A stretch of 64,000 nucleotides of DNA from an uncultured Ruminococcus sp. (GTDB lineage: Bacteria; Bacillota; Clostridia; Oscillospirales; Ruminococcaceae), in the NCBI GenBank assembly GCA_947627275.1, contig CANQVK010000014.1, positions 666 to 64,665 of the forward strand, in the 5' to 3' direction. Positions 1 through 19,880 of the stretch are shown in pieces. The position numbers were made by a program, and so were the translations under genes. How positions within the stretch are numbered: the stretch's first letter is position 1; each line of letters opens with the position of its first letter. A model generated the notes under the pieces. That model made no database searches, had not been told where the DNA came from, and worked only from the letters and a program-made list of their open reading frames with translations.

Positions 1-2
1 TA

Positions 3-1019
3 ACTGCGATAAAAATTCCCGACAGTATAACAAAAATTGGAGATGCAGCTTTTTTCGCTTGTTATGTTTTAAAATCAGTAGAGCTCCCTGACAGTGTTGT
101 TGAAATTGGAGAAGAAGCGTTTGGCTACTGCAAAGAATTAACAAGCGTGAAAATCGGAAGCGGCATTAAGACTATTGATTACGGTGCATTTATATATTGT
201 AAGGCCCTTGCGTCAATTACAATTCCCGACAGCGTTACAAGTATTGAGGCGAATGTTTTCGATCATACAGCATGGTATGACGCTCAGCCGAACGGTTTAT
301 TGTATGTCGGAAATATTTGCTATGAATATAAAGAGGCAATGCCTGATAATACGCAAATTACTATCAAAGAGGGAACAAAGGGGATCGCAGATCAAGCATT
401 TAAAGACTGCGTCGGTTTAACGTCGGTAACTATCCCTGACAGTGTTGAAAATATAGGATACAGTGCATTTTTCGGATGCACCGGCTTAACGTCGGTAACT
501 ATTCCCGAAGAAGTTAAAGTCATTCAGGGACAAGCGTTCAGGAATACAGGATTGAGGACGATAACTCTGCCCAAAAGCGTTGAAAAAATCGGAATGTACG
601 CTTTTTGGGAATGCGGCAGTCTGCGATCTATAACAGTAGAAAATCCAAAGTGTGAATTTGACGACCGAGTATATACCATTCCTGACAGCACGACAGTTTA
701 TGGCTGCATCGGTTCTACGGCTCAGGCTTATGCTAAGAAGTACGGCAAGGATTTTGTGCCTCTGGACGGAGGTTCATATTATTTTGGCGATGTAAACAAC
801 GACGGCAGTATAGATTCAACAGACGCTTCGTTGATACTCAGCGAATACGCTCTCGTTGCAACGACCGGCAAAAGTATTCTTTCGGAGGAGCAGAAGCTTG
901 CCGCTGACGTTAATTTCGATAATATTGTCGATGCAAGCGACGCCTCTTTAATTCTCGGCTACTATTCCTATACGTCAACGGGAGGTACGGAGTCGTTTGA
1001 AACGTTCCTTGCCATATGA
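3..1019 (+). CDS. BspA-type leucine-rich-repeat protein with C-terminal dockerin (5'-partial, runs off window start)
   Basis: Frame is open from position 3 (TAIKIPDSITKIGDAAF...). Repeated LxSVTIPDSVxxIGxxAF units; C-terminal GDVNNDGSIDSTDAS...ADVNFDNIVDASDAS Ca-binding dockerin duplication. Confidence 0.92.
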   Translation, partial: TAIKIPDSITKIGDAAFFACYVLKSVELPDSVVEIGEEAFGYCKELTSVKIGSGIKTIDYGAFIYCKALASITIPDSVTSIEANVFDHTAWYDAQPNGLLYVGNICYEYKEAMPDNTQITIKEGTKGIADQAFKDCVGLTSVTIPDSVENIGYSAFFGCTGLTSVTIPEEVKVIQGQAFRNTGLRTITLPKSVEKIGMYAFWECGSLRSITVENPKCEFDDRVYTIPDSTTVYGCIGSTAQAYAKKYGKDFVPLDGGSYYFGDVNNDGSIDSTDASLILSEYALVATTGKSILSEEQKLAADVNFDNIVDASDASLILGYYSYTSTGGTESFETFLAI

Positions 1020-1042
1020 GAACAGATTATAAAGGTGAGAAT

Positions 1043-1091
1043 AAAAAGTCTGCGTTTCACGTTTTTCGTGATCCGCAGATTTTTATTTTTT
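1043..1091 (+). terminator. Rho-independent terminator after LRR-dockerin gene
   Basis: AAAAAGTCTGCG...CGCAGATTTTT inverted repeat followed by a T-rich tract. Confidence 0.75.
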
Positions 1092-1217
1092 TACAGATCT
1101 AAATTAATTGTGCATAATGGCTGAATTATTATGATTTATTTGTGCAAGTATACGAATTTTTGAAAAGTTTATAATTTTTTCGTCTTTTTTGCCTTTTAAA
1201 ATCACTTGTATATATAA

Positions 1218-1360
1218 GGAATCATAAAGAAATAAGTTATACTCGCCGCTATTGCAAAATGTCCAAAGAATGCTGAACAGAAAATTCGTATGCCAAGGAA
1301 GATGACGCAGACAGATTTTATGTCTGCATTACTGAATATTTTGTAATAGCGGCGAGTGTA
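1218..1360. mobile_element. MITE-like hairpin repeat element, copy A
   Basis: Inverted repeat ACTCGCCGCTATTGCAAAAT (1241-1260) / ATTTTGTAATAGCGGCGAGT (1338-1357); core TATGCCAAGGAAGATGACGCAG; near-copy at 4222-4342; left end matches the terminal repeat of 46629-46740. Confidence 0.6.
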
Positions 1361-1385
1361 TAGTAATCCATGAATGGAGGATGTT

Positions 1386-2489
1386 ATGAAAAAAGAAATT
1401 ATTACAATAATGTCTGCTTTTATTTGTTTTTCTTCTTTTTCCTGCAACGACAAAGATGTTTCATCAAATAAAAACGAGATCGCATTTGCATTTTTAGGTG
1501 GGAGTTGCTATGGTAACGGCATGATACATAGCAGCGATCCAGTGAGATATATAGATTTTAATACTATGGAAAGCAGCGTTCTATGCGCCAAACCGAATTG
1601 TGAACATAAAACATCGGAGTGTGTTGCAAAGCTTGTCGGAGACTGCCCCATTATGTATAATGACTATTTGTATTACTTCACTTCAACTCAAGGCGTTGAA
1701 GAAACAGGAAATGGAAAGCGCGAATACAAGATAAACTCAAAGCTGTGCAGGGTATCTCTTGATTCGTCGGAATCCGAGGATATTGCATATTTCACCGATT
1801 GTAAACCTCGCGACTATGACGGCTGGATGATTATAAATAATACTGTTTGGTTTATCGGAGATAATATGAATCCGACTCCTGACGAATATGGAAATATAGC
1901 GACAAGTAATCAGGGCGGAGAACATTACATTTGCAGTATTGATCTGGAAAGCAAGGAGTACGTTAACTATGGCAGCGTATATGACGGCGATAAGGAATAT
2001 GAGGAAGCCTCATGTACAAGCAGCGCTCAGATAAGAGGATATTATAATTCTAAAATTATGATTCGATATGAGTTCGCAAAAAGCTCTGAAACAAGAGGTC
2101 AGGATTTCAGGCGGAGATTTACGGAGTTAATGTTTGAATTTGATCCACAAACAAAAGAATTAAAAGAAAGCGATCTTCAAATGCCTTCTTATGTTGATGA
2201 GGATACATATGTGTATACGGATTTTGACCAAAACAAGACATATGTTATAGATAATTCAAAAACATATGAAGTAACATGTGATACAGGTCTTGATTCTTTT
2301 GCTGTAAACAATAAACTGTTTGTTTCTGATGAAGATAAATGGTATGATCTGACAGACTTGTCTGAGCATAGCATGGGCGAATATGCAGATTATGGCGTTG
2401 TTGCATTTTATGATAACTCTTATATTTTAAGTGATGGTAATATGAAATTCGTCAAACTCATCGAAGAAGAACTTCTTGCGCTAAAATAA
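1386..2489 (+). CDS. Lipoprotein paralog L1 (CxxPNCxH motif, probable beta-propeller-like)
   Basis: GGAGG RBS at 1376-1380, MKK start, lipobox SFSC, LCAKPNCEHKTSEC, ICSIDL..EY.NYGSVY, C-terminal KLIEEELLALK. Confidence 0.85.
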   Translation: MKKEIITIMSAFICFSSFSCNDKDVSSNKNEIAFAFLGGSCYGNGMIHSSDPVRYIDFNTMESSVLCAKPNCEHKTSECVAKLVGDCPIMYNDYLYYFTSTQGVEETGNGKREYKINSKLCRVSLDSSESEDIAYFTDCKPRDYDGWMIINNTVWFIGDNMNPTPDEYGNIATSNQGGEHYICSIDLESKEYVNYGSVYDGDKEYEEASCTSSAQIRGYYNSKIMIRYEFAKSSETRGQDFRRRFTELMFEFDPQTKELKESDLQMPSYVDEDTYVYTDFDQNKTYVIDNSKTYEVTCDTGLDSFAVNNKLFVSDEDKWYDLTDLSEHSMGEYADYGVVAFYDNSYILSDGNMKFVKLIEEELLALK

Positions 2490-2517
2490 TAAAAATTGAT
2501 ATATTTTTCTATACCTA

Positions 2518-2546
2518 TTGACAATATAACAAATATATGGTATAAT
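2518..2546 (+). promoter_or_regulatory. sigmaA promoter for small secreted gene S1
   Basis: TTGACA-17 nt-TATAAT, exact consensus. Confidence 0.85.
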
Positions 2547-2612
2547 AAAATTTATGAGAAACACGACTTAGGTTAGTTGAATTATAACGCTTAAAAAGCG
2601 GCGGCTTCCGTT

Positions 2613-2939
2613 ATGGCTGTAGCTTCTCTCGCTTCCGTAATGGTCGGCATGAGCTCAAGCGCTTATTACACATCTCGTCCTTTTGGGCATGGCTCAACTG
2701 CTTACAACGCAACATCTATAAACAATGTCTACGCTTCGATGAATACGACTTTGGAAAAAACATACATAAAGGTAGGAGTCACGAAACTGAATGATTATGA
2801 CGTAAACGAATACTTTTCCGGCTCTGTTACGGATCATGTAGAGACAACTGCGTATGAATTAGGCATAAACAAGTCAACTTCTTACCACCAAGAGGGTAAA
2901 CTCGGTTACACTTACACTAATATCACTATGAACGCATAA
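2613..2939 (+). CDS. Small secreted-type protein S1 (signal-peptide n-region lost)
   Basis: MAVASLASVMVGMSSSA hydrophobic/cleavage segment nearly identical to S3; upstream codons homologous to S3 TFKKVVASV are frame-broken; no strong SD. Confidence 0.7.
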   Translation: MAVASLASVMVGMSSSAYYTSRPFGHGSTAYNATSINNVYASMNTTLEKTYIKVGVTKLNDYDVNEYFSGSVTDHVETTAYELGINKSTSYHQEGKLGYTYTNITMNA

Positions 2940-2951
2940 AAAATTATATTG

Positions 2952-3013
2952 TTGACTGGCTGCTGATGATCTGCGGCAACAGAACATGTAAGGGCATCAG
3001 CGGCTGTCAGCAA
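2952..3013 (+). terminator. Stem-loop between S1 and L2
   Basis: GCTGCTGATG / CATCAGCGGC inverted repeat extended by TGAC/GTCA. Confidence 0.55.
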
Positions 3014-3046
3014 TTTTAATTTATAGTATTGCAAAGAGGGGATATA

Positions 3047-4203
3047 ATGAAAAGAAACATATTTATTTTGTCAGTTCTTTTTTTATTTTTGCCATTAGTA
3101 TCATGTGAGGGTAAAAAAGAAAATCCAACTAATGAGTTTAATAATGAAATTATATATATATAGAAAGGTTGAATAACAATTATGGTGACGGCAAAATAAT
3201 AGGCTCATCTCATAAATTATCTGAGAATTATCTTAAATATTTAAAATATCAGGATATGAGTACTGCACCTTTTTGTTCTAAACCAAACTGCACTCATAAA
3301 ACAGATGACTGTTTGGCAAAAGCAGTAGGAAATTGTCCGATACTCACAAAAAACGGCGTATTTTTTTTCAGTGATAAATATGGAGTGGAAGAGAAAAAAG
3401 ATGGAAAAAGAGAATTTGAAATTGATTCCAAATTGTGCAGAGCATCTTTGGATTCTTCTGAAATCGAAACAGTCGCCGAATTTACAGACTGTGTTCCGCG
3501 TGAATATGACGGCTGTATGGTAATAGACGGCGTTTTGTGGTTTACCGGTGATGATATGAATCCCATTACCAATGAATATGGGGCTATTATATCGTCAAAC
3601 GTGGGCGGAACTCATTATTTATGCAGTATTGATCTTAAAACAGGCGAATATACAAATTACGGAAGTGTATATAACGGCGAGAATTACGACAAATCAAGTC
3701 ATGCGTCCATTGTTGGATATTACAACTCAAATCTGTTGATTAATTATGAATACGCAGCATCGCCGGATTATGAAGACCCAAGTGCGCCGTGGTTTGGTTT
3801 GAGCGATTTAATGTTTGAATTTGATCCGAAAACAAAAGAAATGAAGGTTTCCGATATTCCGTCAAGACCGATTTTCTTTGATTTGGAGTCGGAAACATTG
3901 GCTTACTGTGAATATGACGCCAACAAGATAATTGTATTGGCAGATAACAAGAGATATGAACTTAATATGGATATTGCTAAGATTGATGGCGGTATCGCCA
4001 ACTATGCTCCTGTTTATAATAATAAAATCATTATGCTTGGCAGCGGAAAGTGGTATGATATAACAGATCAATCAGAACATTATCTAGGTGAATATGCCGG
4101 TTGGGATTTTGAAGATTACTATGACGGTTGTTACATTTTATCCAACCCAAGAAGAACCAAATACGTCAAACTTACTGAAGAAGAACTTCTTGCGCTAAAA
4201 TAA
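3047..4203 (+). pseudogene. Lipoprotein paralog L2, frameshifted at a (TA)6 tract (possibly phase variable)
   Basis: ATG 3047 gives MKRNIFILSVLFLFLPLVSC (lipobox) and stops at TAG 3161-3163. Removing one TA from 3151-3162 joins it to ORF 3169-4203 (FCSKPNCTHKTDDC; KLTEEELLALK). Confidence 0.85.
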
Positions 4204-4221
4204 TAAAATTCGATAGATATA

Positions 4222-4342
4222 CTAGACGCTATTGAAAAATGCCCAAAGGATGCAGAACAGAAAATCCGTATGTCAAGGAAGATGACGCAGACAGACGGAT
4301 TTTATGTCTGCCTTACTGGATATTTTTCAATAGCGGCGAGTG
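4222..4342. mobile_element. MITE-like hairpin repeat element, copy B (left-truncated copy of A)
   Basis: CGCTATTGAAAAAT / ATTTTTCAATAGCG inverted repeat; core TATGTCAAGGAAGATGACGCAG; colinear with 1241-1360. Confidence 0.6.
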
Positions 4343-4383
4343 TAACATACGATAAAAACGATAATCAAAATTCAGGAGATTTT

Positions 4384-5541
4384 ATGAAAAATAAAATATT
4401 ATTTGCAACTGTTATAGTGGCATTTTTGACGTCAGGATGCGGCGGCAATGATGTAACTTCAAAAGGTAATATTCAGTCGGATAGCGATTTTACTTCTACT
4501 CATTCAGACGACAGCGTTCATAATTGCATTGATGCTCAATATATAGATTCAGGGGAAAATATATATGATAATGGCATGATCTATGGAAGTGACGCTCCCA
4601 AAACCTATTTGGATTTTGAAACAATGGAAAAGACTGTTTTATGCGCATTGCCTAATTGCAATCACTCCACATCTGAATGTATTGCTGCAAAAATTGGCAG
4701 AACTCCTATTATCTTTAATGACTATATTTATTATTTTGATGTTAAAGATGGTGTAAAAGAAAATTCGGATGGCAGAGAATTTTACATAGATTCTCAACTT
4801 AAGAGAGTTTCACTGACAAATTCTGAAATTGAAGACATAGTTCAATTTACAGATTGTGAACCCAGAGAATACGGTGGATGCGTTATTCTTGACGGAATTC
4901 TTTATTTTTGCGGCGATGACATGAATCCTACCAAGGACGAATATGGCGGAATATCTTATGCTAATGGAGGCGGTACTCATTTTTTATGTAGTATTGATCT
5001 TAATACGGGTGAATATGTTAATTATGGAAGTATTTACGATGAAGATAAGCAATATGAAAGCTCGGCTCAGACGAGTACTGCCCATGTAATCGGTTATTAT
5101 AATTCCAAGATTTATATCCAATATAGTTTTATGAAGGAATATATTGACGATCCGAACATTGAAACTCGTGAAAAATTCACGATCCTTAATTTTGAATTTG
5201 ACCCTTTAACAGGAAATTTGTCGCAAAGCGAACTTCTGTCGGGTTCGTTTATGAATGGAAATACCTATGTTTGCAGTAATTATCCTGACAATTCATCAAC
5301 TGTTATAGATGGCGATCAGAAATATACAATCAATGGAGCGGACGCAAAATTTGTTGGGAAATATTTCGACAAAAAGCTATTTGTTTACGATCGTTGGTAT
5401 GATGTTACAGATAAATCGTTGCATTTGCTTGGAGAAGATCGAAAATTTGTAACTATGTATGAGAATTTCTATATTATATCCAACCAATCAGGAACTAGAT
5501 ATGAAAAACTCACCGAAGAAGAACTTCTTGCACTAAAATAA
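4384..5541 (+). CDS. Lipoprotein paralog L3
   Basis: CAGGAG RBS then MKNKILF...LTSGC lipobox; LCALPNCNHSTSEC; KLTEEELLALK. The ORF-track start at 4270 lies inside the repeat element. Confidence 0.85.
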   Translation: MKNKILFATVIVAFLTSGCGGNDVTSKGNIQSDSDFTSTHSDDSVHNCIDAQYIDSGENIYDNGMIYGSDAPKTYLDFETMEKTVLCALPNCNHSTSECIAAKIGRTPIIFNDYIYYFDVKDGVKENSDGREFYIDSQLKRVSLTNSEIEDIVQFTDCEPREYGGCVILDGILYFCGDDMNPTKDEYGGISYANGGGTHFLCSIDLNTGEYVNYGSIYDEDKQYESSAQTSTAHVIGYYNSKIYIQYSFMKEYIDDPNIETREKFTILNFEFDPLTGNLSQSELLSGSFMNGNTYVCSNYPDNSSTVIDGDQKYTINGADAKFVGKYFDKKLFVYDRWYDVTDKSLHLLGEDRKFVTMYENFYIISNQSGTRYEKLTEEELLALK

Positions 5542-5569
5542 TAAAAATTTATATATTTTTCTATATCTA

Positions 5570-5598
5570 TTGACAATATAGAAAATATATGGTATAAT
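5570..5598 (+). promoter_or_regulatory. sigmaA promoter for S2
   Basis: TTGACA-17 nt-TATAAT. Confidence 0.85.
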
Positions 5599-5663
5599 AA
5601 AATTTATGAGGAAACGACTTAGGTTAGCTGAATTATAACGCTTAAAAAGCGGCAGCTTCCGTT

Positions 5664-5996
5664 ATGGCTATTTCAACACTTGTTGTAAGCACAGTTGGAG
5701 TTAACACGAATGCTTATTGGGCAACTGTGTCTTTTGCTAATGATTATGCAACAGCATATAATGCAACAAGTTATAATTCTGTATATGCTTACACTGATTC
5801 AAGTGTTTCAAATACTACAAGAACGGTTTATATTGCAAATGTGAATTATAATGTCAATCCATTGCGTTCTCCTTACTTTAAATCAAGTACTAATGGTAGG
5901 GTTGTAGCCAATTATACTGGCTCAGGATTTAACACCTCTAAAACGGATCATTCTTTAGCAGGCTACGGTAGCCATTCAATTTATATGAATGCTTAA
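5664..5996 (+). CDS. Small secreted-type protein S2 (n-region lost)
   Basis: MAISTLVVSTVGVNTNA signal remnant; shares TAYNATS.N.VYA and C-terminal MNA with S1; same damaged 5' region as S1. Confidence 0.7.
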   Translation: MAISTLVVSTVGVNTNAYWATVSFANDYATAYNATSYNSVYAYTDSSVSNTTRTVYIANVNYNVNPLRSPYFKSSTNGRVVANYTGSGFNTSKTDHSLAGYGSHSIYMNA

Positions 5997-6006
5997 ACGA
6001 AATAAT

Positions 6007-6039
6007 AAGGCTGTTGTTATAAATTGATGCAACAGCCTT
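6007..6039 (+). terminator. Stem-loop between S2 and L4
   Basis: AAGGCTGTTG / CAACAGCCTT perfect 10-bp stem. Confidence 0.65.
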
Positions 6040-6065
6040 TGTTCGTATGAAAGGAAAAGATTATA

Positions 6066-7202
6066 ATGAAAAAAATTGCTTATTATGCAATTGCCATGTT
6101 ATTTGCTTTATCATCATGTAACAGTAAGAATGAAACAAAAAACATTTTAATTGAAAGTAATGATAACATATTCGTTGCAGAGTATGCTGATAATTATAAA
6201 AACGGACGAATTATTGGCGGCAACTCTGAAGGAAACACCGATGCACCGTCAATGTATGTAGATTACAATACTATGGAGAAAACAATTCTTTGTTCTAAAC
6301 CAAATTGTACTCATAAAAATAGCGAGTGTCCGGCAAAGGTTATTGGAACTGCTCCAATACTTACAGAAAATAATATATGTTTTTTTGATTGCAGTTATGG
6401 TGTTGTAGAAAAAAAGAGTGGAAAGAGAGAATTGGAAATAAATTCTAAATTATGTAAATTATCTTTAGATACATCTGAAATAGAGACAATTGTTGAATTT
6501 AATGATTGCGTGCCGGATAATTCAAGAGGCTTTGTTCTTAACGATAATAAAATATATTTTACCGGAGACGATCTTGATCCAACATCGGATGAATACGGAG
6601 GAATTTTTTATTCCAATATAGGCGGAACTCATTATTTATGTAGTATTGATCTTAAAACAGGCGAATATACAAATTACGGAAGTATTTATGACGATGACAA
6701 AAAATTTGAAGGAGCAAAAAGTTCCAGCTCGGCAAGAATATTGGGGATATATGATTCTAAGCTGATTATAAATTATGAATTTAGCAAAACGAACGATGAT
6801 GCGGTCTATGGAAATTTTACTGAACTTGTATTTGAGTTTGATTTTGATTCCAATCAATGGACACTAAGCGATATTCCAAATATGCCAATTTTTGTTGATT
6901 ATGATACTATAGTCTATTATGATAATGATATAGATAGATGTATTATAATTGATAATGGAGAACGTACGGAACTTGATACTGGTAAAGTTACTCTTGCTTC
7001 AATTCAAAATAATAAGCTTTTTATTCGTGATGATTTGAATAATTTTGCTTTAAAATGGTATGACCTTTCGGATATGTCAAAGCATCATGTAAAAGGATAT
7101 GATGGCTATATGCCAGTAAGTATTTACAATGATAGCTACATTCTTACAAGAGGTAATAATACAGCTAAACTCACCGAAGAAGAACTTCTTGCACTAGAAT
7201 AA
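6066..7202 (+). CDS. Lipoprotein paralog L4
   Basis: MKK...ALSSC lipobox; LCSKPNCTHKNSEC; KLTEEELLALE. Confidence 0.85.
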   Translation: MKKIAYYAIAMLFALSSCNSKNETKNILIESNDNIFVAEYADNYKNGRIIGGNSEGNTDAPSMYVDYNTMEKTILCSKPNCTHKNSECPAKVIGTAPILTENNICFFDCSYGVVEKKSGKRELEINSKLCKLSLDTSEIETIVEFNDCVPDNSRGFVLNDNKIYFTGDDLDPTSDEYGGIFYSNIGGTHYLCSIDLKTGEYTNYGSIYDDDKKFEGAKSSSSARILGIYDSKLIINYEFSKTNDDAVYGNFTELVFEFDFDSNQWTLSDIPNMPIFVDYDTIVYYDNDIDRCIIIDNGERTELDTGKVTLASIQNNKLFIRDDLNNFALKWYDLSDMSKHHVKGYDGYMPVSIYNDSYILTRGNNTAKLTEEELLALE

Positions 7203-7230
7203 TAAAAATTGATATATTTTTTTATACCTA

Positions 7231-7259
7231 TTGACAAATTGGAAATAATATGTTATAAT
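7231..7259 (+). promoter_or_regulatory. sigmaA promoter for S3-L5-ABC unit
   Basis: TTGACA-17 nt-TATAAT. Confidence 0.85.
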
Positions 7260-7431
7260 GACATTGACGATAAAAAATATCATAACTCAAACTAATTAAA
7301 TTACAATAATAAGGTTAATTCAAAATTAATTTGTGGTCAGTTTTATTGTATATGGTAGGCTGAACTCAACATTATTTTAAAGGGCATAACATACGATAAA
7401 AACGATAATCAAAATTCAGGAGGTAGTTAAT

Positions 7432-7779
7432 ATGAAAAAAACTTTTAAAAAAGTGGTAGCTTCCGTTATGGCTGTAGCTTCTCTCGCTTCTGTTGTGGTC
7501 GGCATGAGCGCAAGCGCGGCAACTGGATACACTTCAAATCTTTCTGGTGGAACAGGCTCTTTGAGCGTTTCAGACGGTTTTGTATATGCTTCGACAACTT
7601 CAAGTAAAGCACAGTATTTGTACGTTGGAATAACAAGAACCACTCCCGAGGGAAATACTGATAGTGATGGCGGAAAAGGCAGAACCAGTGCTAGTGCAAC
7701 AGTATATGGTGACTATTCTCACGCATGGTCTTTTCATCAGACAGAAACAGGCAGCGATACTTTATCAGTAGGAAGATAA
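7432..7779 (+). CDS. Small secreted protein S3 with intact Sec signal peptide
   Basis: GGAGG RBS; MKKTFKKVVASVMAVASLASVVVGMSASA signal; Ser/Thr/Gly-rich ~86-aa mature part. Confidence 0.85.
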   Translation: MKKTFKKVVASVMAVASLASVVVGMSASAATGYTSNLSGGTGSLSVSDGFVYASTTSSKAQYLYVGITRTTPEGNTDSDGGKGRTSASATVYGDYSHAWSFHQTETGSDTLSVGR

Positions 7780-7790
7780 AATGAACTTAA

Positions 7791-7823
7791 GTGAAACCAT
7801 ACGAGCAATTCGTATGGTTTCGC
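7791..7823 (+). terminator. Stem-loop between S3 and L5
   Basis: GAAACCATACGA / TCGTATGGTTTC perfect stem. Confidence 0.65.
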
Positions 7824-7845
7824 AATATTTATAAGGGGCGTTTAA

Positions 7846-8988
7846 ATGAAATTTTTGATTAAAGCGATACTTGTGCCTGTTTCAATGTTGTTCCTTTTTG
7901 CGTGCGGAAACAACGGTGATACGCTGAATGAGGAAAAAATCCAAACTCAGGGATATGTAAAGGCTGTATGTAATTTATACAATAACGGTCGTATTTATAA
8001 CGATCAAAAAGCCATGTATGTAGATTTTGATACGCTCGAATCCGTTCCCCTCTGCTCTAAACCCAATTGTAATCATACGAGTTCGGACTGCGTTGCAAAT
8101 ATGGTCGGACAATGCCCGATAGTATATAATAACTACGTTTATTATCTGACTTTCAAGCATGGAGTTAATGAAGTCGGAAACGGAAAAAGAGAGTTTTATA
8201 TAAATTCAAAACTTAACCGTGTTTCAATGGAAACATCTGAAATGGAAACTGTTAAAGAGTTTCATGATGGTGTTCCAATTATTGCAGACGGATATTATCT
8301 GAATGGGAATGAACTATATTTTATAAGTACTGATATGGGACCTGACGAAGACGAATACGGAAATATATCTGTATCTGATTTTGGCGGAACACAGTTTTTA
8401 TGCTGCATCAACCTTGATACCGGAGAATACATAAATTATGGAAGTGTTTATGAAGGTGATAAACAATACGAGGGAGCGTCTCATTCGCGTGCCGCTACTA
8501 TAATCGGCGCAAAAGATTCAAAATTATATATTTTTTACAGCTATCGTGAAAAGAATTATTCTGTGGAAGAATTGCAGAAAATGCAGGAATCAGGCGTTGA
8601 TATGCAGGATACTTTTACTGATCTGAATTTCGAGTTTGATATGAATACAAAAACACTGTCCGAAAGTGAGCTTCCAGCACTGTCATATGTGGACTCAGAT
8701 TCGTATGTTTATTATGATCATACAAAAGAAAAAGCAATAGTTTTTTATCGTGGAAATGAATATGAGCTTGATGCTGATACGAGATATAATACATCAGTTA
8801 TCAACGGAAAGTTATTTACGCAGGATACACAGAAATGGTACGAATTAAGCGATATGTCAGAACACGATATGGGAAAGTACGGTAATTTTAAAGCAATAGC
8901 GTATTATGACAACTGCTATATTCTTGCATATGAAAATCAAACCGTCAAACTCACCGAAGAAGAACTTTTGGCGCTTGACAAGGAGTGA
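7846..8988 (+). CDS. Lipoprotein paralog L5 (coupled to ABC ATPase)
   Basis: LFAC lipobox; LCSKPNCNHTSSDC; KLTEEELLALDKE; its 3' end carries the AGGAG RBS of the next gene. Confidence 0.85.
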   Translation: MKFLIKAILVPVSMLFLFACGNNGDTLNEEKIQTQGYVKAVCNLYNNGRIYNDQKAMYVDFDTLESVPLCSKPNCNHTSSDCVANMVGQCPIVYNNYVYYLTFKHGVNEVGNGKREFYINSKLNRVSMETSEMETVKEFHDGVPIIADGYYLNGNELYFISTDMGPDEDEYGNISVSDFGGTQFLCCINLDTGEYINYGSVYEGDKQYEGASHSRAATIIGAKDSKLYIFYSYREKNYSVEELQKMQESGVDMQDTFTDLNFEFDMNTKTLSESELPALSYVDSDSYVYYDHTKEKAIVFYRGNEYELDADTRYNTSVINGKLFTQDTQKWYELSDMSEHDMGKYGNFKAIAYYDNCYILAYENQTVKLTEEELLALDKE

Positions 8989-8993
8989 TGATC

Positions 8994-9734
8994 GTGAATA
9001 AGCTTGGATTGCAGAAGATAAACAAGCACTACGGCAAGAAAAAACATGCGCTATGCGACTTTACATTTGAATTTACCAACGGGATTTACGGACTTCTCGG
9101 ACCGAACGGAGCAGGCAAATCCACGCTTATGAACATTATTACGGATAATCTTCTCCCCGATAAGGACGGCGGAAAAATTTTCTGGAACGGCGAGGAAACG
9201 AGGCTTCTCAAAGATAAATTCCGCAGCCGATTAGGATTTATGCCTCAGCAGCAGAACCTCTATGAGAGCATGACTGCGCGGAAGTTTTTGAACTATATTG
9301 CTGCGCTGAAATGCCTTGATAAAAGGTCGGCTGAAAAGGAGATCTCCGAAATAGTAGAGCGTGTAGAGCTTACCGACAGCATTGACAAAAAAATGGGCGG
9401 ATTTTCGGGCGGAATGAAGCAGAGAGTGCTGATTGCCGCCGCGCTTCTGGGCGACCCCGACCTTATAATCCTTGACGAGCCGACGGCAGGTCTTGATCCG
9501 AAGCAGAGGGTAATAATCCGCAATATGGTTTCGGTTTTGGGCAGGGACAAAATAATCATTATTTCGACGCATATCGTCTCGGACATTGAAACGATAGCAA
9601 AGGAGGTACTTTTCATAAAAGAGGGGCATCTGATAGACAGCGGTACTATGCCCGACCTGACCGAAAAGGTCGAAAGCGGCGATAAGACCCTTGAAAACCT
9701 GTATATGCAGTACTACGGCGAGGTGCAGTCATGA
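8994..9734 (+). CDS. ABC transporter ATP-binding protein
   Basis: Walker A GPNGAGKST, signature FSGGMKQR, Walker B IILDEP, H-loop STH. GTG 8994 is best spaced from the RBS (alternatives 8985/8988). Confidence 0.95.
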   Translation: MNKLGLQKINKHYGKKKHALCDFTFEFTNGIYGLLGPNGAGKSTLMNIITDNLLPDKDGGKIFWNGEETRLLKDKFRSRLGFMPQQQNLYESMTARKFLNYIAALKCLDKRSAEKEISEIVERVELTDSIDKKMGGFSGGMKQRVLIAAALLGDPDLIILDEPTAGLDPKQRVIIRNMVSVLGRDKIIIISTHIVSDIETIAKEVLFIKEGHLIDSGTMPDLTEKVESGDKTLENLYMQYYGEVQS

Positions 9735-11902
9735 GAGTTTTGGCTACAGAACTTAAAAAGCTGCTGAGCAATAAAATTTTCCTGCTGATAATTGCCGCTG
9801 TTTTCGTTCTGAACGGCTATCTTATGTTCAGGACGGCGAACTCGGGCGACGCCAAGCCTGCGGACTACAAAGCCGTTTATGCGGAGCTTGAAGGTCTGAG
9901 CGATACCGAGAAGCTTCAATGGCTCAATGACAGGCTCGGTGAATTTGAGGGGCAGCATTCGTTCAGTTGGACGGTTTTAGGCGAGCTTCGTGATGAAGCC
10001 GCAAATATTGCGGGCTATTCGGACTATCTTGATTCTATAGATTCACAGGCGAGATCAATGACGAGCGTTTCGATTTTTGCAAAGCCCGACACTTTCAACT
10101 ACCGCAGCATTGTGAGAACTCCGCCCGCATATGACAAGGTACGTGACGTTGAGCCGATTTTTGACGTTTCAAAGGGAATCGCCCTTGCAACGGACAACAG
10201 CTTCACGGATATTTTGAGCGGCTTTATTGTGCTGTTTGCTGTTTTGGCGCTGATGATCTCCGACAGAGAGCAGGGAATGTCGGGACTTCTTTTTTCTTTA
10301 AGGCGGGGCCGCAGCTATTTGCTCCTGAGTAAAACAGGCGCGCTTGCAATTGCGATTTTCGGCGCTATATTGCTTATTTATGCCGAGAATCTCATAATAG
10401 CTTCTTGTCTGTACGGTCTGGGCGAGCTGTCAAGACCCGTTCAGTCTCTTAACGGATTTATCGGCTGTAATCTGAAAATAAGCGTTATTGGATATTTGAT
10501 CTTATACGTTCTGTTCAAGTTCATTGCAATGTTTGTGATCGGAGCGTTTCTTTCGCTTATTGCGGTGAATACTAAAAATATCGTATCTTTTTACGGCATA
10601 TCGGCAGTTATCCTGATTGCGGAGGGCGTTGCCTATGCGAAGATACATCCGCTGTCGATATACAGTATTTTCAGATATATCAATCTTATTTCGTTTACAA
10701 AGGTCAACGAGATATTCTGCAATTACAAAAACATAAATTTTTGGGAATATCCCGTTCCGCTGATACCGACTTCTATTGGCGCAGTACTTGTCATCGCTGC
10801 GATATGCGTTGTGTTGTCATCGTATATGTACGCAAAGAAACGTAATCTTGAATTCAGAAAAATCGGATTCAAATTCAGGTTCGGGAAAGGAAATAAAATT
10901 CATTCCAGACTTTATTATACGCTTTACAAGTCGCTCATAATGCAAAAGGGAATATTTATTATCGCCGTTTTTATTGTGGTATCTGTATTTATGGGTGAAG
11001 CCTTTATCAAAAAATACGACCCCATCGACGTCTATTACGAATATTATACGACTGAAACAGAGGGCGAAATTACGCAGGAAACCATTGATTTCTACGACAG
11101 TGAAGCTATCAGGTTCGATGAGCTTAACGCGCGTCTGGAAAATCCCGATATTACCTCTGAGGAGGAAAGAGAAATTTATAAGCAGCTTGCGCCGACAATG
11201 GGATTTTATCCGTCGTATGAACGCCTGAATCAAATCAAGGACATCGAAAACGCGCATATTTTTTACGATACGGGATATAAACGCGCGTTTGGAATAAACG
11301 GTTATGACGATGATATGAAATACGCATTTGCGGCGATACTGCTTTGTCTGTTTCTGATCTCTCCGCTGATAGCCAATGACAATAAATATCGGATGAAATC
11401 GGTTATCAATTCTACAAGCTCAGGCAGAAAAAGTTATATCCGCAGAAATATTTTAACGGCTGCGCTGTATGGATTTGCGGCGTCGCTTCTGTGGATAATT
11501 CCCTATATGGTCACTATTTCCCGATATTACGGACACGGCGGACTTTCGGCTTCGATACGCAGTATCACTGATCTTATAAATTTTCCTCTGAACATCAGCG
11601 TATTGCAGTATATAATTCTTATATGCCTGCTGAGAACAGTTTCCGTACTTTTTACAGCTATGATAATGCTCTGGGTATCTTCGATGTGCAGGAATGTAAT
11701 TTCGGCTGTGCTTATTAATTTCGCCGTATTTGCTCTGCCGATCATAATTTATTTGCTCGGTGCGGAATTTATGGCGAATATCGGATTTAATCCTCTGCTA
11801 AGCGTTAATGTTATGTTAAATGAATTTTCAATTGTGCAGATCATGATACCGCTAATTGGCGTAATTGCAGTTATGATCTGTGAAATTCAAAATAGAAAGT
11901 GA
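9731..11902 (+). CDS. Large ABC-2-like exporter permease with two similar halves and extracellular loops
   Basis: ATGA overlap with the ATPase; many TM segments; repeated motifs SDREQGMSGLLFSLRRGR / NDNKYRMKSVINSTSSGR. Confidence 0.85.
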   Translation: MRVLATELKKLLSNKIFLLIIAAVFVLNGYLMFRTANSGDAKPADYKAVYAELEGLSDTEKLQWLNDRLGEFEGQHSFSWTVLGELRDEAANIAGYSDYLDSIDSQARSMTSVSIFAKPDTFNYRSIVRTPPAYDKVRDVEPIFDVSKGIALATDNSFTDILSGFIVLFAVLALMISDREQGMSGLLFSLRRGRSYLLLSKTGALAIAIFGAILLIYAENLIIASCLYGLGELSRPVQSLNGFIGCNLKISVIGYLILYVLFKFIAMFVIGAFLSLIAVNTKNIVSFYGISAVILIAEGVAYAKIHPLSIYSIFRYINLISFTKVNEIFCNYKNINFWEYPVPLIPTSIGAVLVIAAICVVLSSYMYAKKRNLEFRKIGFKFRFGKGNKIHSRLYYTLYKSLIMQKGIFIIAVFIVVSVFMGEAFIKKYDPIDVYYEYYTTETEGEITQETIDFYDSEAIRFDELNARLENPDITSEEEREIYKQLAPTMGFYPSYERLNQIKDIENAHIFYDTGYKRAFGINGYDDDMKYAFAAILLCLFLISPLIANDNKYRMKSVINSTSSGRKSYIRRNILTAALYGFAASLLWIIPYMVTISRYYGHGGLSASIRSITDLINFPLNISVLQYIILICLLRTVSVLFTAMIMLWVSSMCRNVISAVLINFAVFALPIIIYLLGAEFMANIGFNPLLSVNVMLNEFSIVQIMIPLIGVIAVMICEIQNRK

Positions 11903-11907
11903 GAGAC

Positions 11908-12675
11908 ATGAAGAAAAAAATTATATCAGCAGTGTGTATACTGTTGGCTATGAATTTAATTAGCTGTGGAAGCTGGGCAGATCCATATCCGATAGATTAT
12001 TCGGCAAAGGACAATCTTGCGATAGAGTATATGAATGGAAAATATGGTGAAAATTTTAACATTTCCGTAGGCACGATAAGTGAGCATACATGGGCTCCAA
12101 TGGAAGAACCTTTCAGCGTATATTACTATACAATGGTAAGTCCTGAGGGTGCGGCAGAGGATGAAAAATATTACGTCTATTCCGATGACAACGAAACTCA
12201 TGAAGAGTCATGGATAGTCGGCGATGGCTATATGATGAACATTGTTGAGCCGTATATCAGACAGTTTGTTGAGGAATCTCTGAAAGAACACGCTCCCTGT
12301 GCTGATACGTATTTCATTATATGGGGGGCGGGAAGTGCAGATATTCGTGAACAAACGACATTATTTACAAGCACTTTCTGCTTCAGTCCTGATTTTCCTG
12401 TTATCTCATCATACGATGAGTTTTTAGAGGAAGCGAAAAATGTTTACCTTGATTTGTGTATATTTGTACCTGATTCCGAGCAGAATATTGATTCTGTAGC
12501 TCAGGACTGGCAGGAATGGCGAGAATATATGTATGGTAACTTTAATGAAGGGATAAATCTTTGGTTGGAAACTGTCGAGGACGAGAGCTTTTTCGGGGCG
12601 GATGATACGTTACCGGATAAACACTTGAATTTTAAAACAACACATACAATAAACCTAAAGGATTGGAGAGAATAA
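11908..12675 (+). CDS. Acidic lipoprotein of unknown function (unrelated to L1-L5)
   Basis: MKKKIISAVCILLAMNLISC lipobox; AIEYMNGKYGENF N-terminal motif. Confidence 0.75.
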   Translation: MKKKIISAVCILLAMNLISCGSWADPYPIDYSAKDNLAIEYMNGKYGENFNISVGTISEHTWAPMEEPFSVYYYTMVSPEGAAEDEKYYVYSDDNETHEESWIVGDGYMMNIVEPYIRQFVEESLKEHAPCADTYFIIWGAGSADIREQTTLFTSTFCFSPDFPVISSYDEFLEEAKNVYLDLCIFVPDSEQNIDSVAQDWQEWREYMYGNFNEGINLWLETVEDESFFGADDTLPDKHLNFKTTHTINLKDWRE

Positions 12676-12711
12676 AATGAGCAGAGAAAACAACATTGAT
12701 TTAGATGAAAT

Positions 12712-12807
12712 AATGTTATGTTAAATGAATTTACGCCGGTGCAGATTGCGATCCCTGCATTGGCATTGGTAGGTTTTGCCGTCAGGAAAAAACTTTATAA
12801 ATTATAG
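12712..12807 (+). pseudogene. Orphan alternative C-terminus of the ABC permease
   Basis: 12711-12732 is identical to 11806-11827; reads NVMLNEFTPVQIAIPALALVGFAVRKKLYKL* versus permease NVMLNEFSIVQIMIPLIGVIAVMICEIQNRK*. Confidence 0.8.
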
Positions 12808-12836
12808 TGAACGTAAAAATAAATTTTACGTTCGCT

Positions 12837-12885
12837 ATAGACCTCCTCGGAAATCGGAGAAGCGCTGGATTCCGAGGAGGTCTAT
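12837..12885. terminator. Strong hairpin closing the accessory locus
   Basis: ATAGACCTCCTCGGAA / TTCCGAGGAGGTCTAT 16-bp inverted repeat; a second hairpin lies at 12808-12835. Confidence 0.6.
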
Positions 12886-13003
12886 TGAATTTCCTGCAAA
12901 GCGAAAGCGTCCCCTGCTAAAGTTGACGGTCAAAGCTGGACAAATAAAAAAAAATGTGGTATAATAATTTCTGCAATAAAAAATCAAAGCAGAGGTAAAA
13001 AAT

Positions 13004-14155
13004 ATGAACAAAAAAGAGACAGCAGAGATAAAGAAGAACTTTTCGGATAAAAGCGGATTTTTCATTATGGACAGAGTTCTTACGGGCTTTGTGGACGCAG
13101 AAAAAAACGTCCGCTACTATAAAACGTCGTCGTGTCTGACGATGCCTGTTGAGGAGCATGACGTATACGATGAAACGCTGAAAAAAGTCCTCAACACAAA
13201 CGTGGGAAAGAATTTCTGCGAATATCAGTTTCCAAACGAAGCCTACGAGGAGGGACAGCCGCAGGAGATACTTTACAGTCTGCTCCGTTCTGAGCTTAAG
13301 GACGACATTATCTGCGAGAATTTCATGAATCATATAGCGAACAATTTCAGTCACGAAGGGCCGTATGCGGTCATTACGGCATATTGTACATACACTATCC
13401 GCCGCAAGGACAAAAACGACGAGTTTGCGGAGGGCGAGGACGAGCTTTACCGCTATCTGCTCACAGCGCTCTGTCCCGTGAATACAGGCAGCGACGGCTT
13501 TGTTTTCGACAGCTTCAATAACGAGATAACAAAGAAAGTAAACACCGAACTTATCATCAGCAAAGCGCCCTCCGAGGGATTTTTGTATCCTGTTTTCAGC
13601 AACAGAAGCTCCGATATAAACCATGTAATGTGTTATATGAAGTCCGCCTCAAAGCCGAATATTTCGCTTGTTGAGAACGTTCTGGGCTGTACGTTCGTGA
13701 TGTCTGCGGATAACGAAAAGGCAAGCTTTCAAAATATTCTTAAGGGCGTTGTAGGCGACGATCTGGACTATATGGTCATAAAGACCGTAAATGAAAAGCT
13801 ACAGGAGGTAGTTGAGGAAAATAAGGACGATACGGACAAAACAGTCATTGACAATTCCAAGCTTAAGGGTATTCTTACCGATATAGGGATCCCACAGGAG
13901 CGTGTAGAGATGACGGACCCTGTGTACGAGAAATTCTGCGGAGACGCGCCGCTTACCGTGAGCAATCTTATCGAGACGAAAACGGTGCTGACTTCTCCCG
14001 GAATAACCGTGAATATCAAGCCGTCGGCAGCCGATAAGGTGCGTACAAGCGTGGTAAACGGACGGCGATGTCTGCTTATAGATCTTGACGACCCCACCAT
14101 TGAAATAAACGGTCTGCCTGTCAGACTGGAGGAGAAAAAGGAGGTCATGGCATAG
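13004..14155 (+). CDS. DUF4317 family protein
   Basis: MNKKETAEIKKNF start and FLYPVFSNRSSDINH motif recognised as typical of this Clostridia family; RBS GAGGT. Confidence 0.8.
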   Translation: MNKKETAEIKKNFSDKSGFFIMDRVLTGFVDAEKNVRYYKTSSCLTMPVEEHDVYDETLKKVLNTNVGKNFCEYQFPNEAYEEGQPQEILYSLLRSELKDDIICENFMNHIANNFSHEGPYAVITAYCTYTIRRKDKNDEFAEGEDELYRYLLTALCPVNTGSDGFVFDSFNNEITKKVNTELIISKAPSEGFLYPVFSNRSSDINHVMCYMKSASKPNISLVENVLGCTFVMSADNEKASFQNILKGVVGDDLDYMVIKTVNEKLQEVVEENKDDTDKTVIDNSKLKGILTDIGIPQERVEMTDPVYEKFCGDAPLTVSNLIETKTVLTSPGITVNIKPSAADKVRTSVVNGRRCLLIDLDDPTIEINGLPVRLEEKKEVMA

Positions 14156-14173
14156 AAACGCCTATCATCGTTA

Positions 14174-14334
14174 AGAGCCTGTTTAGTATCTCGGCGTGTG
14201 CGAATTTTCGAGCATAATTTTGCCGAATACAAGTCAAAAATCCACAGGCATATTGTCATATGGCAAGGATTTTTAACGCAGTAATCGGAAAATTTGCTGA
14301 AAATACGTGCGTGAGGAGATACTAAACAGGCTCT
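14174..14334. mobile_element. MITE-like element, copy C
   Basis: Perfect 18-bp terminal inverted repeats AGAGCCTGTTTAGTATCT / AGATACTAAACAGGCTCT; core CAGGCATA..TATGGCAAGGATTTTTAACGCAG. Confidence 0.75.
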
Positions 14335-14422
14335 AAAACAGGGGGACAAAGCCCCCCTGACAAATTAACGATATTGGGCAGGCACGCAGTATTGCGAGGT
14401 CTGCCGTGTTTCTTTTGACGAT

Positions 14423-15679
14423 ATGCAGAAGATAAAGGATATTTTTCACAGCGAGCATTTGAAAGAGATAAGATTTTTTTTCAAATGGCTGTTTATAGGC
14501 TCGGTCATGGGAGTTCTTATAGGACTTACGGGCGCTTTATTTCATTTCTGCTCCGGCGAGGCGGAGAGCTTCCGGACAGAACACACATGGCTGATATTTC
14601 TGCTTCCTGCTGCCGGAGCGGCGATAGCCTGCTTGTACGACGTACTCAATTACAGCCATGATAAAGGAACTAACCTTGTGCTTTTAGCCGTCCGCGACAA
14701 TAAAATAATGGGAATACGCCATGCCGTGTGTATTTTCATAGCGACTGTGCTTACCCATTTATGCGGCGGTTCAAGCGGACGAGAGGGTGCGTCACTGCAA
14801 ATCGGGGCGGCGCTCGGTTCGTTTACGGGACGTAAGCTGAAATTCAACGACGATGATAAGCGGATAATGACAATGTGCAGCATGAGCGCAATGTTTGCGG
14901 CGGTTTTTGGTACTCCCGTAACAGCTGCCATTTTTTCTATGGAAGTGGTCAGCGTTGGAATTTTCTACTACTCGGCAATAGTTCCATGCGTTACGGCTGC
15001 GCTGACAGCGGGATATATTTCATCGCTTTTCGGAAATACCCATATACAGGTAAGTGTAAATATGCCTGATGCAGACCCTTTGCTGTATCTGAAAGTCGTG
15101 CTTATAGGAGCTGTATGCGCCGGTATCAGCGTGCTTTTCTGTGTACTTCTGGGCGGTACGAGTAAGCTTTTCAAAAAAATCAAAAACCACGCTCTGAGGG
15201 CGGCGGCAGGCGGCGTTATCGTAGTTCTGCTGACCGTGATCGAGGGCAGCGGCATGTACAACGGAACGGGCGGAGCGGCAATAATCTCGGCATTTGTCAA
15301 AAGTCCGTTCTTTGCGGCGTTCATTATAAAAATGCTGTTTACGGCAGTCACTCTCGGTTCGGGCTTCAAGGGCGGAGAAATATTTCCCGTGTTTTTTATC
15401 GGTTCGTCTTTCGGGAGCGTTTTTGCGCCGCTGCTGGGGCTGGACTGTTCTGTTGGAGCGTCAGTCGGCATGGCTGCGCTTTTCTGCGGCGTTACAAACT
15501 GTCCCGTTGCTTCGATACTGTTGAGTATCGAGCTTTTCGGCAGCGAGGGCATCGGAGTTTACGTGCTTGCCTGTGCGGTGAGCTACATGCTTTCGGGTTA
15601 CAGAGGTCTGTACAGCGAGCAGAAAATATTGTACTCAAAAATCAAAACCAAGTATATAAATAAACGCATCGGCGGATAA
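14423..15679 (+). CDS. ClC/EriC chloride channel family protein
   Basis: GSSGREGA and GFKGGEIFP selectivity-filter motifs; multiple TM helices. Confidence 0.92.
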   Translation: MQKIKDIFHSEHLKEIRFFFKWLFIGSVMGVLIGLTGALFHFCSGEAESFRTEHTWLIFLLPAAGAAIACLYDVLNYSHDKGTNLVLLAVRDNKIMGIRHAVCIFIATVLTHLCGGSSGREGASLQIGAALGSFTGRKLKFNDDDKRIMTMCSMSAMFAAVFGTPVTAAIFSMEVVSVGIFYYSAIVPCVTAALTAGYISSLFGNTHIQVSVNMPDADPLLYLKVVLIGAVCAGISVLFCVLLGGTSKLFKKIKNHALRAAAGGVIVVLLTVIEGSGMYNGTGGAAIISAFVKSPFFAAFIIKMLFTAVTLGSGFKGGEIFPVFFIGSSFGSVFAPLLGLDCSVGASVGMAALFCGVTNCPVASILLSIELFGSEGIGVYVLACAVSYMLSGYRGLYSEQKILYSKIKTKYINKRIGG

Positions 15680-15745
15680 CGTCGTCAACTTATATGGGAA
15701 AAGAACTCTCATAAGTTGATGACGTTGCAGTTCCCTGCAAAGCTG

Positions 15746-16138
15746 TTACATAAGATTTTTAGGTCTTGAGGAATTAACGCCTGCAATACCGCCGACAGCG
15801 CCTGCTGCTGCGAGTAACATCAGTTTCCTGAGATCGGTAAATTCCCCGATTGCGACGGACGCCGAAAGCAGAACGGCGTATATGACCGCGCCGCATATTG
15901 CGCCGTCGATCATTCCACGCCGTCTGCGGTAACGTCCGCATAAATGACCGCTGAAATAGCCGCTTATGAACAGCGTCAGCAGATTGAAAAGCTTACCGAA
16001 CATCATACCCTTAAATACTAAAAAAGACACCGCAGAGAATAAAACGCACCCTGCAAGTCCGCATAGTATTCCAAAAAATATAGGTATGCCGAAGCTCAGA
16101 AAAGTATTTTCCCATATGCTTTTTCTGTAATGACCCAT
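15746..16138 (-). CDS. TIGR04086-like small membrane protein
   Basis: Four Gly-rich TM segments, GRYRRRRGMIDG loop, AGAVGGIAGVN end; GGAGG RBS before ATG 16138. Confidence 0.7.
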   Translation of the reverse strand: MGHYRKSIWENTFLSFGIPIFFGILCGLAGCVLFSAVSFLVFKGMMFGKLFNLLTLFISGYFSGHLCGRYRRRRGMIDGAICGAVIYAVLLSASVAIGEFTDLRKLMLLAAAGAVGGIAGVNSSRPKNLM

Positions 16139-16190
16139 AAAAAGCCTCCACATAATATTTACTTAATATTATGCGGAGGCTTGTTTTTTT
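16139..16190 (-). terminator. yajC terminator overlapping the RBS of the downstream gene
   Basis: Minus-strand hairpin AAGCCTCCGCATAATATT / AATATTATGTGGAGGCTT followed by a T run and then ATG. Confidence 0.6.
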
Positions 16191-16716
16191 ATTCGTTTTC
16201 GGAGGGATCGGCGTCCTCGGCTTTCTTGGATTTTTTTGATTTCTTCTTGTCGCTGTCGTCGGTAACTCCTGCCGCTGCAAGAGGCGATTTTGTTTTGGAC
16301 TGCGCTTCCTTTGCTCTTTCGGCAGCCGAAACGTTTTCGGCAACAGCCCATTTTTTGATCCTCAGCTTGTGACGTTCGCCGCCTGTTTCTATAACTATAG
16401 TGTCGTCGCCGATGCGGAATACCATTCCGACAATACCGCCGCTGGTGATGATCTCATCGCCGACCTGCAAGCTGTTCTGCATGTTTTTGGTTTCCTGATC
16501 GCGTTTTTTCTGCGGTCTTATAGCCATAAAGTAGAGTAGCACGAACATAAGCACAAGGGGGATGACCAAGGTCATTATCGGGTTGCCGGCAGCCTGCTGA
16601 TTTCCCGAATCTGAAGCGGCGGCTTCGCCCTCTGCGAATGCGTTCATTGCATAAGCTCCTGCCGACATCATCGTAATGATCGCTGTTACGAGAATATACG
16701 CTGTTTTTCTTTTCAT
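16189..16716 (-). CDS. yajC: Preprotein translocase subunit YajC (N-terminal extension)
   Basis: YFMAIRPQKKR...LQVGDEIITSGGIVG motif; AAGGAG RBS before ATG 16716. Confidence 0.92.
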   Translation of the reverse strand: MKRKTAYILVTAIITMMSAGAYAMNAFAEGEAAASDSGNQQAAGNPIMTLVIPLVLMFVLLYFMAIRPQKKRDQETKNMQNSLQVGDEIITSGGIVGMVFRIGDDTIVIETGGERHKLRIKKWAVAENVSAAERAKEAQSKTKSPLAAAGVTDDSDKKKSKKSKKAEDADPSENE

Positions 16717-18751: not shown

Positions 18752-18761
18752 GGAATAAAAT

Positions 18762-19835: not shown

Positions 19836-19846
19836 TATGCAAATAC

Positions 19847-19875: not shown

Positions 19876-19880
19876 AATAA

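Follow-up and report, generated by a model that had tools for sequence, protein, structure and literature searches.

A (TA) tract polymorphism interrupting a predicted beta-propeller lipoprotein gene in an ABC transporter-linked array: a probable recent slippage null allele in a Ruminococcus-like gut bacterium

Genes and features of the locus

The window, that is, the whole 64-kb stretch of DNA that was analysed, contains an A/T-rich 8-kb block of tandem paralogous genes (L1–L5) that ends directly at the gene for an ABC-2-type ATPase, which is followed by the gene for a multi-pass permease (Table 1). The window paralogues were 40–47% identical to L2, the gene with which this study is concerned. 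In general, members of this family are approximately 375 amino acids long and occur as one to five tandem, highly divergent copies directly upstream of the ABC ATPase and permease genes (positions 1374–11902 of the window; loci L006–L028). In 15 of the 20 fetched genome loci that carried the ATPase, the same ATPase–permease pair was immediately preceded by one to four family genes, and at locus L011, as on the Logan contig L005, only the ATPase was present before the contig ended. The related loci were recovered by an alignment-based search and not by a single-sequence search, and the latter found no close relative of the locus in the GTDB representative genomes. The array and transporter were hosted by Ruminococcus-like gut MAGs of rabbit, deer, sheep, and others. 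Across the related loci, the ATPases were 80–95% identical and the permeases 55–87%, whereas the lipoproteins were only 32–48% identical. Because the lipoproteins diverge to this extent beside so well conserved an ATPase, the family probably constitutes the variable, multiplied, and exported partner of a conserved transporter.

Table 1. Positions of the features of the lipoprotein array and of the L2 gene in the window
Feature	Position	Strand	Remarks
Paralogue L1	1386-2489	+	
Sigma-70-type promoter, TTGACA-17-TG-n-TATAAT	2518-2546	+	12/12 match, extended -10; after L1, upstream of s1
Small ORF s1	2613-2939	+	108 aa; paralogue of s2 and s3; no Pfam/NCBIfam family
Hairpin with U-rich tail (AAUUUUAAUUU), terminator- or attenuator-like	2948-3014	+	Between s1 and L2
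Shine-Dalgarno-like sequence AAGAGGGG	3034-3041	+	5 nt 5' of the L2 start codon; read from the sequence
Predicted L2 signal peptide, lipobox L-V-S-C, Cys20	3047-3106	+	From the sequence; Cys20 column at least 90% conserved among 63 members
Truncated L2 frame, window allele	3047-3163	+	38 codons and TAG at 3161-3163
(TA)6 tract, TATATATATATA, frameshift site	3151-3162	+	2-nt deletion at 3151 in X3 and X6
Rest of the L2 coding sequence (beta-propeller body)	3163-4203	+	Frame +2; intact, same in the (TA)5 strain
Paralogue L3	4384-5541	+	
Small ORF s2	5664-5996		
Paralogue L4	6066-7202	+	
Small ORF s3	7432-7779		
Paralogue L5	7846-8988	+	Stop codon overlaps the start of the ABC ATPase
ABC-2-type ATPase (DrrA/GldA-like)	8985-9734	+	
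Multi-pass permease	9731-11902	+	723 aa

The lipoprotein genes are interspersed with three small ORFs (s1–s3), which encode 108–115 amino acids with a signal-peptide-like start. Of the strong promoters upstream of L2, the one in front of s1 lies closest to it. This promoter is conserved in the alignment; identical promoters lie at positions 5570–5598 and 7231–7259, and the three follow L1, L3, and L4. From their sequences and positions, each of these three perfect promoters is predicted to drive one small ORF. Both s1 and s2 lack a segment of approximately 136 nt that bears a ribosome-binding site and an MKKTFKK start and that is present in s3; s3 itself had only three relatives in the database, and its AF2 model (pLDDT 48) was unusable. 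A strong hairpin was found between each of the small ORFs studied and the next L gene. The hairpin between s1 and L2 had a folding energy of -38.6 kcal/mol (z = -5.8), with equally good folds in 0 of 200 shuffles, and a similar terminator-like hairpin is located at positions 7791–7823, between s3 and L5. A search of positions 1–13 kb of the window against Rfam returned nothing above noise. One idea is that the small ORFs are bacteriocin-like and that the L proteins are their immunity partners.

Two repetitive or high-depth elements were also observed. An element of approximately 125 nt with terminal inverted repeats (TACACTCGCCGCTATT...) lies at positions 1233–1360 and 4215–4349, upstream of L1 and L3, and further joints of it occur near positions 14172–14337, 16889–16921, and 31074–31185. 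Because the word depth of this element in the contigs was 85–195x, compared with 6–10x in its flanks, it is a dispersed MITE/REP-like repeat. Very high contig depth was also recorded at positions 51492–51840, where it is attributable to a cluster of tRNA-Tyr, tRNA-Thr, and tRNA-Pro genes on the minus strand.

Interruption of the L2 reading frame in the TA tract

The L2 frame opens at ATG 3047–3049 with a predicted signal peptide (MKRNIFILSVLFLFLPLVSC), in which a positively charged n-region and a hydrophobic core precede the lipobox (MKRN-IFILSVLFLFLP-LVSC). The lipobox conforms to the pattern [LVI][ASTVI][GAS]C, with Cys20 encoded at positions 3104–3106, and L2 is accordingly classified from its sequence as a predicted bacterial lipoprotein and putative Lgt/Lsp substrate. 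In the window, the frame stops inside the (TA)6 tract, the final TA unit of which supplies the first two bases of the TAG codon. Downstream of this point, 1,041 nt remain open in frame +2 until position 4203, and the gene callers placed the start of this downstream ORF at TTG 3169, yielding a protein of 344 amino acids (P0001). When one TA unit is removed, L2 becomes a continuous protein of 384 amino acids (...NEIIYIERLNNNYGDGKII...).

A preliminary description of this DNA had already read the lipobox-bearing frame as ending at the TAG codon inside the tract, and all of its coordinates were verified. It had also proposed that a (TA)5 tract would restore an unbroken protein; this repaired L2 aligned in frame with 62 homologues and crossed the junction without a break in the resulting 63-sequence family alignment. 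The spacing between the lipobox cysteine and a YxxG motif, to which the same description had drawn attention, was borne out in this alignment by Cys20, Tyr45, Gly48, and Ile50, all of which fell in columns that were at least 90% conserved.

The tract occupies codons 35–39 of the 384-codon gene, in the 5' part of the coding sequence, and the length of its unit is not a multiple of three. Two, five, or eight units keep L2 in frame, and three, four, six, seven, or nine units lead to a stop within 36–43 codons. In its (TA)5 form, the tract encodes the Ile-Tyr-Ile of the region of residues 35–38 (Ile-Ile-Tyr-Ile, ATT ATA TAT ATA).

The repaired L2 protein and its homologues

A database search with the repaired L2 sequence identified 89 homologues, every one of which was unnamed or annotated as "hypothetical", and the named sources among them were Ruminococcus or Porcipelethomonas MAGs. 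No Pfam or NCBIfam family was found for L1–L5, the small ORFs, the permease, or a 258-aa lipoprotein. The family is marked by the invariant residues C76, N80, C81, H83, and C88 (C-x3-NC-x-H-x4-C) and by a conserved C-terminal KLTEEELLAL helix. Because the lipobox was present in all full-length homologues in the family alignment, the signal-less 344-aa protein P0001 is not a natural isoform but an artefact that the frameshift has introduced into the annotation. The closest orthologue, P0002 (380 amino acids), was 66% identical to the repaired L2 and carries IKYITRLDNSYDDGRIIG opposite IIYIERLNNNYGDGKIIG of L2 (in a longer stretch of the alignment, ...NKIKYITRLDNSYDDGRIIG... opposite ...NEIIYIERLNNNYGDGKIIG...). 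At the site of the tract, the DNA of P0002 reads AAA TAC ATA ACA and contains no TA tract, suggesting that the tract in L2 is young and lineage-specific.

The AF2 model of L2, built from the family alignment, was all-beta and had a pLDDT of 87 and a pTM of 0.86; its first beta strand (E35–38) is the IIYI segment encoded by the tract. The best Foldseek matches of this model in the PDB were propellers only, namely the kelch, prolyl-oligopeptidase, and acylaminoacyl-peptidase propellers and Sec12. Because the TM scores of these matches did not exceed 0.45 and their identities did not exceed 12%, L2 cannot be assigned to a specific propeller family. On the basis of the model, L2 is predicted to be a beta-propeller lipoprotein.

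Distribution of the two tract alleles

The L2 locus occurs in rabbit-gut metagenomes. The (TA)6 allele was found in the Logan contigs of four runs (X1, X2, X4, and X5), all derived from sample S1, and also in four ENA assemblies carrying P0001. The (TA)5 allele was found in run X3, which was derived from sample S2 of a different study; its contig has two bases fewer at position 3151 and is otherwise identical to the window over positions 2944–3400. Over positions 1–20000, X3 differed from the window by two SNPs, with the TA unit as the sole indel, and the number of SNPs was still only two over 1–26 kb. The (TA)5 allele was also found in X6, a relative with approximately 95% identity. Tract lengths were read from consensus contigs with a word depth of 4–9x, in which minority lengths within a sample are invisible, and the contigs of runs X7–X12 do not reach the tract. 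A search for a tract of variable length between exact flanks found nothing in genome contigs or metagenome contigs, and no RNA runs holding the locus were found.

Because the near-identical X3 strain and the approximately 95%-identical X6 both read (TA)5, this ON form is ancestral. Judged from these sequences, (TA)5 is the ancestral, functional state of L2, and (TA)6 is a real and very recent allele with one unit more. Its very recent origin follows from the survival of the intact (TA)5 allele in a near-identical strain elsewhere. The frameshift is the single lesion in L2; the 344 downstream codons are open and identical to those of the (TA)5 strain, and neither the multiple lesions nor the relaxed constraint of a decaying pseudogene was observed.

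Beyond the region of the array, the differences between X3 and the window were patchy, with 28 SNPs at positions 26549–30521, approximately 90 in total at positions 42841–47162 and 52955–57543, and 1-nt indels at positions 26549 (in an A7 run), 44645, and 58729. These patches of SNPs between two rabbit-gut strains have the look of segments imported by recombination into a clonal background, so the strains are very closely related but have recombined in places. The X2 and X4 contigs join position 43638 to position 46628 at a depth of 11–13x, omitting 2,989 bp and carrying 29 other letters between the two positions. The omitted segment contains an ATPase-like ORF and two lipoprotein ORFs (45026–45781 and 45738–46481), and the join is possibly a presence/absence polymorphism. 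In the ENA contig L004 (ERZ27249041 NODE_5893), which has low coverage, nucleotides 1–53 are unrelated to the locus, and the point of fusion lies 16 nt before the (TA)6 tract. These 53 nt had no match among the sequences of this analysis, and the foreign 5' end may reflect either a rearrangement or chimerism at the end of the contig.

Tract statistics and survey of the family genes

No dinucleotide run in the window is longer than the (TA)6 tract, and all others have at most four units. From dinucleotide-preserving shuffles, 0.01 (TA)6 tracts are expected per 64 kb, and one of 100 shuffles contained such a tract. The family genes have a GC content of 34.7%, compared with 44.6% for the window, and the codon usage of the five window paralogues gives a probability of 0.053 that the peptide IIYI is encoded as ATT ATA TAT ATA.

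The survey covered 47 family genes from 25 independent sources; these genes came from the window, from the Logan contig L005, and from related MAG or genome assemblies (24 loci). None of the other 46 family genes surveyed contained a coding (TA) tract of at least six units. Two of the surveyed genes contained (AT)5, and the one at locus L013 lies in frame at the homologous NIYIK position. TA tracts of at least four units were approximately three-fold denser in the family genes than in the flanks (28 of the 67 tracts, in 16% of the DNA), a density that could be explained by low GC content together with beta strands rich in Tyr and Ile. In-frame stops were found in gene 3 of L013 (11211–12305) and gene 2 of L022 (11189–12334), where WYD has become stop-YD and the sequence reads NGS-stop-LYF, respectively. 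From their sequences, both genes are point-mutation pseudogenes within tandem arrays. Because two family genes are interrupted by plain in-frame stops, the family loses copies by ordinary mutation.

A second (TA)6 tract, at positions 1065–1076 of L017, precedes the ATG codon of another family gene by 38 nt and falls within promoter-like sequence (TTTTTTGCAC...CACTTATATATATATAG). This tract was considered as evidence of hypermutability and rejected, since a relative with approximately 94% identity has one unit fewer together with substitutions, which points to ordinary divergence.

Interpretation of the (TA)6 allele

The (TA)6 allele of L2 is probably a recent null allele generated by slippage and not an evolved switch. 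L2 would ordinarily be exported by the Sec pathway and its lipobox as a beta-propeller lipoprotein, and it belongs to a tandem set of five divergent paralogues that precede a conserved ABC transporter. Slipped-strand mispairing during replication would have added one TA unit to the short, self-complementary (TA)5 tract, and the shift in frame would have placed TAG at codon 39, leaving only a signal-peptide stub of 38 residues. The 344-codon body of L2 would be left with no export signal, and both the export and the synthesis of one redundant paralogue would be abolished in one host population. In principle, a slip of one unit in the opposite direction could reverse the null allele, and because the intact allele coexists in a near-identical strain, the event is very young and still revertible. 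The tract itself would be an accidental, weak hotspot arising from A/T-rich codon choice in a redundant family with fast turnover, and its switching rate would probably be low.

The main alternative is genuine translational phase variation through a simple sequence repeat, in which the TA tract would be a reversible switch, ON with five or eight units and OFF with four, six, or seven. Such a switch would vary which of the five beta-propeller lipoproteins is displayed, for example, in response to phage, host IgA, or a competitor. We consider this reading unlikely, although several observations fit it equally well. The preliminary description had proposed an ON/OFF phase-variable lipoprotein that is currently OFF, and part of this proposal stood: L2 is OFF by one extra TA unit, its functional ancestral state is (TA)5, and the difference in tract length between S1, with (TA)6, and S2, with (TA)5, takes an otherwise intact ORF in or out of frame in near-identical strains. 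As the strain comparison suggested in that description would have it, tract length varies between close relatives, with no further inactivating decay. The tract is also unlikely by chance and is the only one of its kind in 64 kb; it belongs to a multicopy, hyper-divergent family beside a conserved ATPase, and the greater density of TA tracts in the family genes and the (TA)6 tract upstream of a start codon in L017 can be counted on the same side. Furthermore, the tract occupies the classic position just 3' of the signal peptide, where H. pylori oipA (PMC10564699) and M. fermentans p78 (cited in PMC3711429) likewise carry a repeat.

The step from a slippage polymorphism to a phase-variable lipoprotein was not supported. 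PhasomeIt applies a cut-off of at least six units to putative phase-variable dinucleotide repeats (PMC6321876), and the (TA)6 tract reaches it. L2 shares with the predictions of this type in Campylobacter and Neisseria a simple sequence repeat within an ORF and a frame-dependent truncation (PMC6321876), but differs from them in that only the OFF allele, with six units, falls in this hypermutable range, whereas the ON state has just five units and lies below the cut-off. Moreover, the PhasomeIt authors caution that a tract of cut-off length may have a mutation rate below 1e-5 and switch inefficiently (PMC6321876). The tract was not maintained beyond what composition and coding provide: codon usage accounts for it (p = 0.053), the orthologue P0002 does not have it, and neither do the 46 other family genes, which contain no such coding repeats and decay by nonsense mutations. 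All S1 assemblies read (TA)6, with no within-sample heterogeneity at the level of low-depth (4–9x) consensus contigs. The other biological option in the preliminary description, a recent pseudogene, can be retained in the form of a recent slippage-generated null allele, which fits at least as well as phase variation and shows no secondary decay.

An assembly or sequencing artefact, in which the true sequence would be (TA)5 and the gene intact, is very improbable. Coverage was low, with a word depth of approximately 4–9x, and several contigs break near the tract (X5 at 3052/3119; L003, which begins approximately 74 nt before it; and L004, with its foreign 5' end). However, all eight S1 assemblies, the four Logan runs and four ENA assemblies, produced by two pipelines, read (TA)6, and the same pipeline gave (TA)5 for X3, from an independent study, and for X6. 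Illumina reads seldom carry indel errors at a dinucleotide run of 12 nt, and such errors would be inconsistent across runs. The assembly error that had been entertained in the preliminary description is thereby effectively excluded.

Equally improbable is a leaky OFF allele, in which the P-site tRNA-Ile on AUA 3158–3160 would re-pair with AUA 3160–3162 (a +2 slip) with TAG in the A site, and reading would restart at GAA 3163 to give a low level of exactly the (TA)5 protein, since the geometry of the sequence, with a period-2 repeat that would permit perfect re-pairing after a 2-nt slip and a hungry stop codon directly at the end of the tract, is set against the rarity of +2 shifts, the lack of a stimulatory element and of conservation, the presence of the locus in no RNA run, and the (TA)5 tracts of the relatives, which show that the conserved state is not the frameshifted one. 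A role of the tract as the -10 element of an internal promoter was also considered and rejected, because it is followed by TTG 3169 at a distance of only 6 nt and every homologue requires the signal peptide.

Comparison with known systems

In H. pylori, which is not known to have canonical mismatch repair, switching has been proven by experiment. Like L2, the oipA gene of this species (and also sabA and babB) has a dinucleotide (CT) repeat in its 5' part, belongs to a family of surface-protein paralogues, and is toggled in frame by a single unit, and strains have been found to be "on" or "off" according to the number of CT units (PMC10564699). In contrast to the L2 tract, which has five or six units, is lineage-specific, and is explained by codon usage, the H. 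pylori tracts are longer and conserved across strains. The p78 gene product of M. fermentans resembles L2 in being a surface lipoprotein of an ABC-transporter operon that is toggled by slippage in a short coding repeat; the p78 repeat is a homopolymeric poly-A, whereas that of L2 is a dinucleotide, and the proteins are unrelated (cited in PMC3711429). High-frequency variation of p78 was seen in clonal cultures (cited in PMC3711429), whereas the tract lengths of L2 were read from consensus contigs. By analogy, L2 would work like oipA or p78 on paper, but its tract is not conserved.

L2 also resembles an ordinary frameshift null allele, in which a redundant paralogue is disabled by one indel within a short repeat, and the allele is fixed at the consensus level in one population. 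Unlike an ordinary pseudogene, L2 lacks secondary decay, and an intact allele exists in a near-identical strain.

Implications for the lipoprotein family

Phase variation of the simple-repeat type has been documented mostly in pathogens and mycoplasmas, and invertible promoters account for most of the variation known in gut bacteria. That a contingency switch operates at the TA tract, with slippage stochastically toggling members of a hyper-variable lipoprotein array in a commensal gut clostridial bacterium, seems to us rather doubtful. If the tract truly switches, however, it would rank among the few documented examples of phase variation by simple repeats in gut-commensal Clostridia and would mean that this mechanism also shapes surface display in Ruminococcus-like commensals. 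The Pfam-less lipoprotein/ABC module would then be a surface structure under fluctuating selection, with the array as the exposed, fast-evolving partner of the ABC-2 transporter and perhaps a target of phage, antibodies, or bacteriocins.

A fresh null allele, which we judge likelier, is an already known kind of event, and its value would be mainly practical, in that the 344-aa annotation starting at TTG 3169 should be read as a frameshift artefact. As such an allele, L2 would illustrate how A/T-rich codon choice for Ile-Tyr-Ile makes accidental slippage hotspots in the genes of this family.
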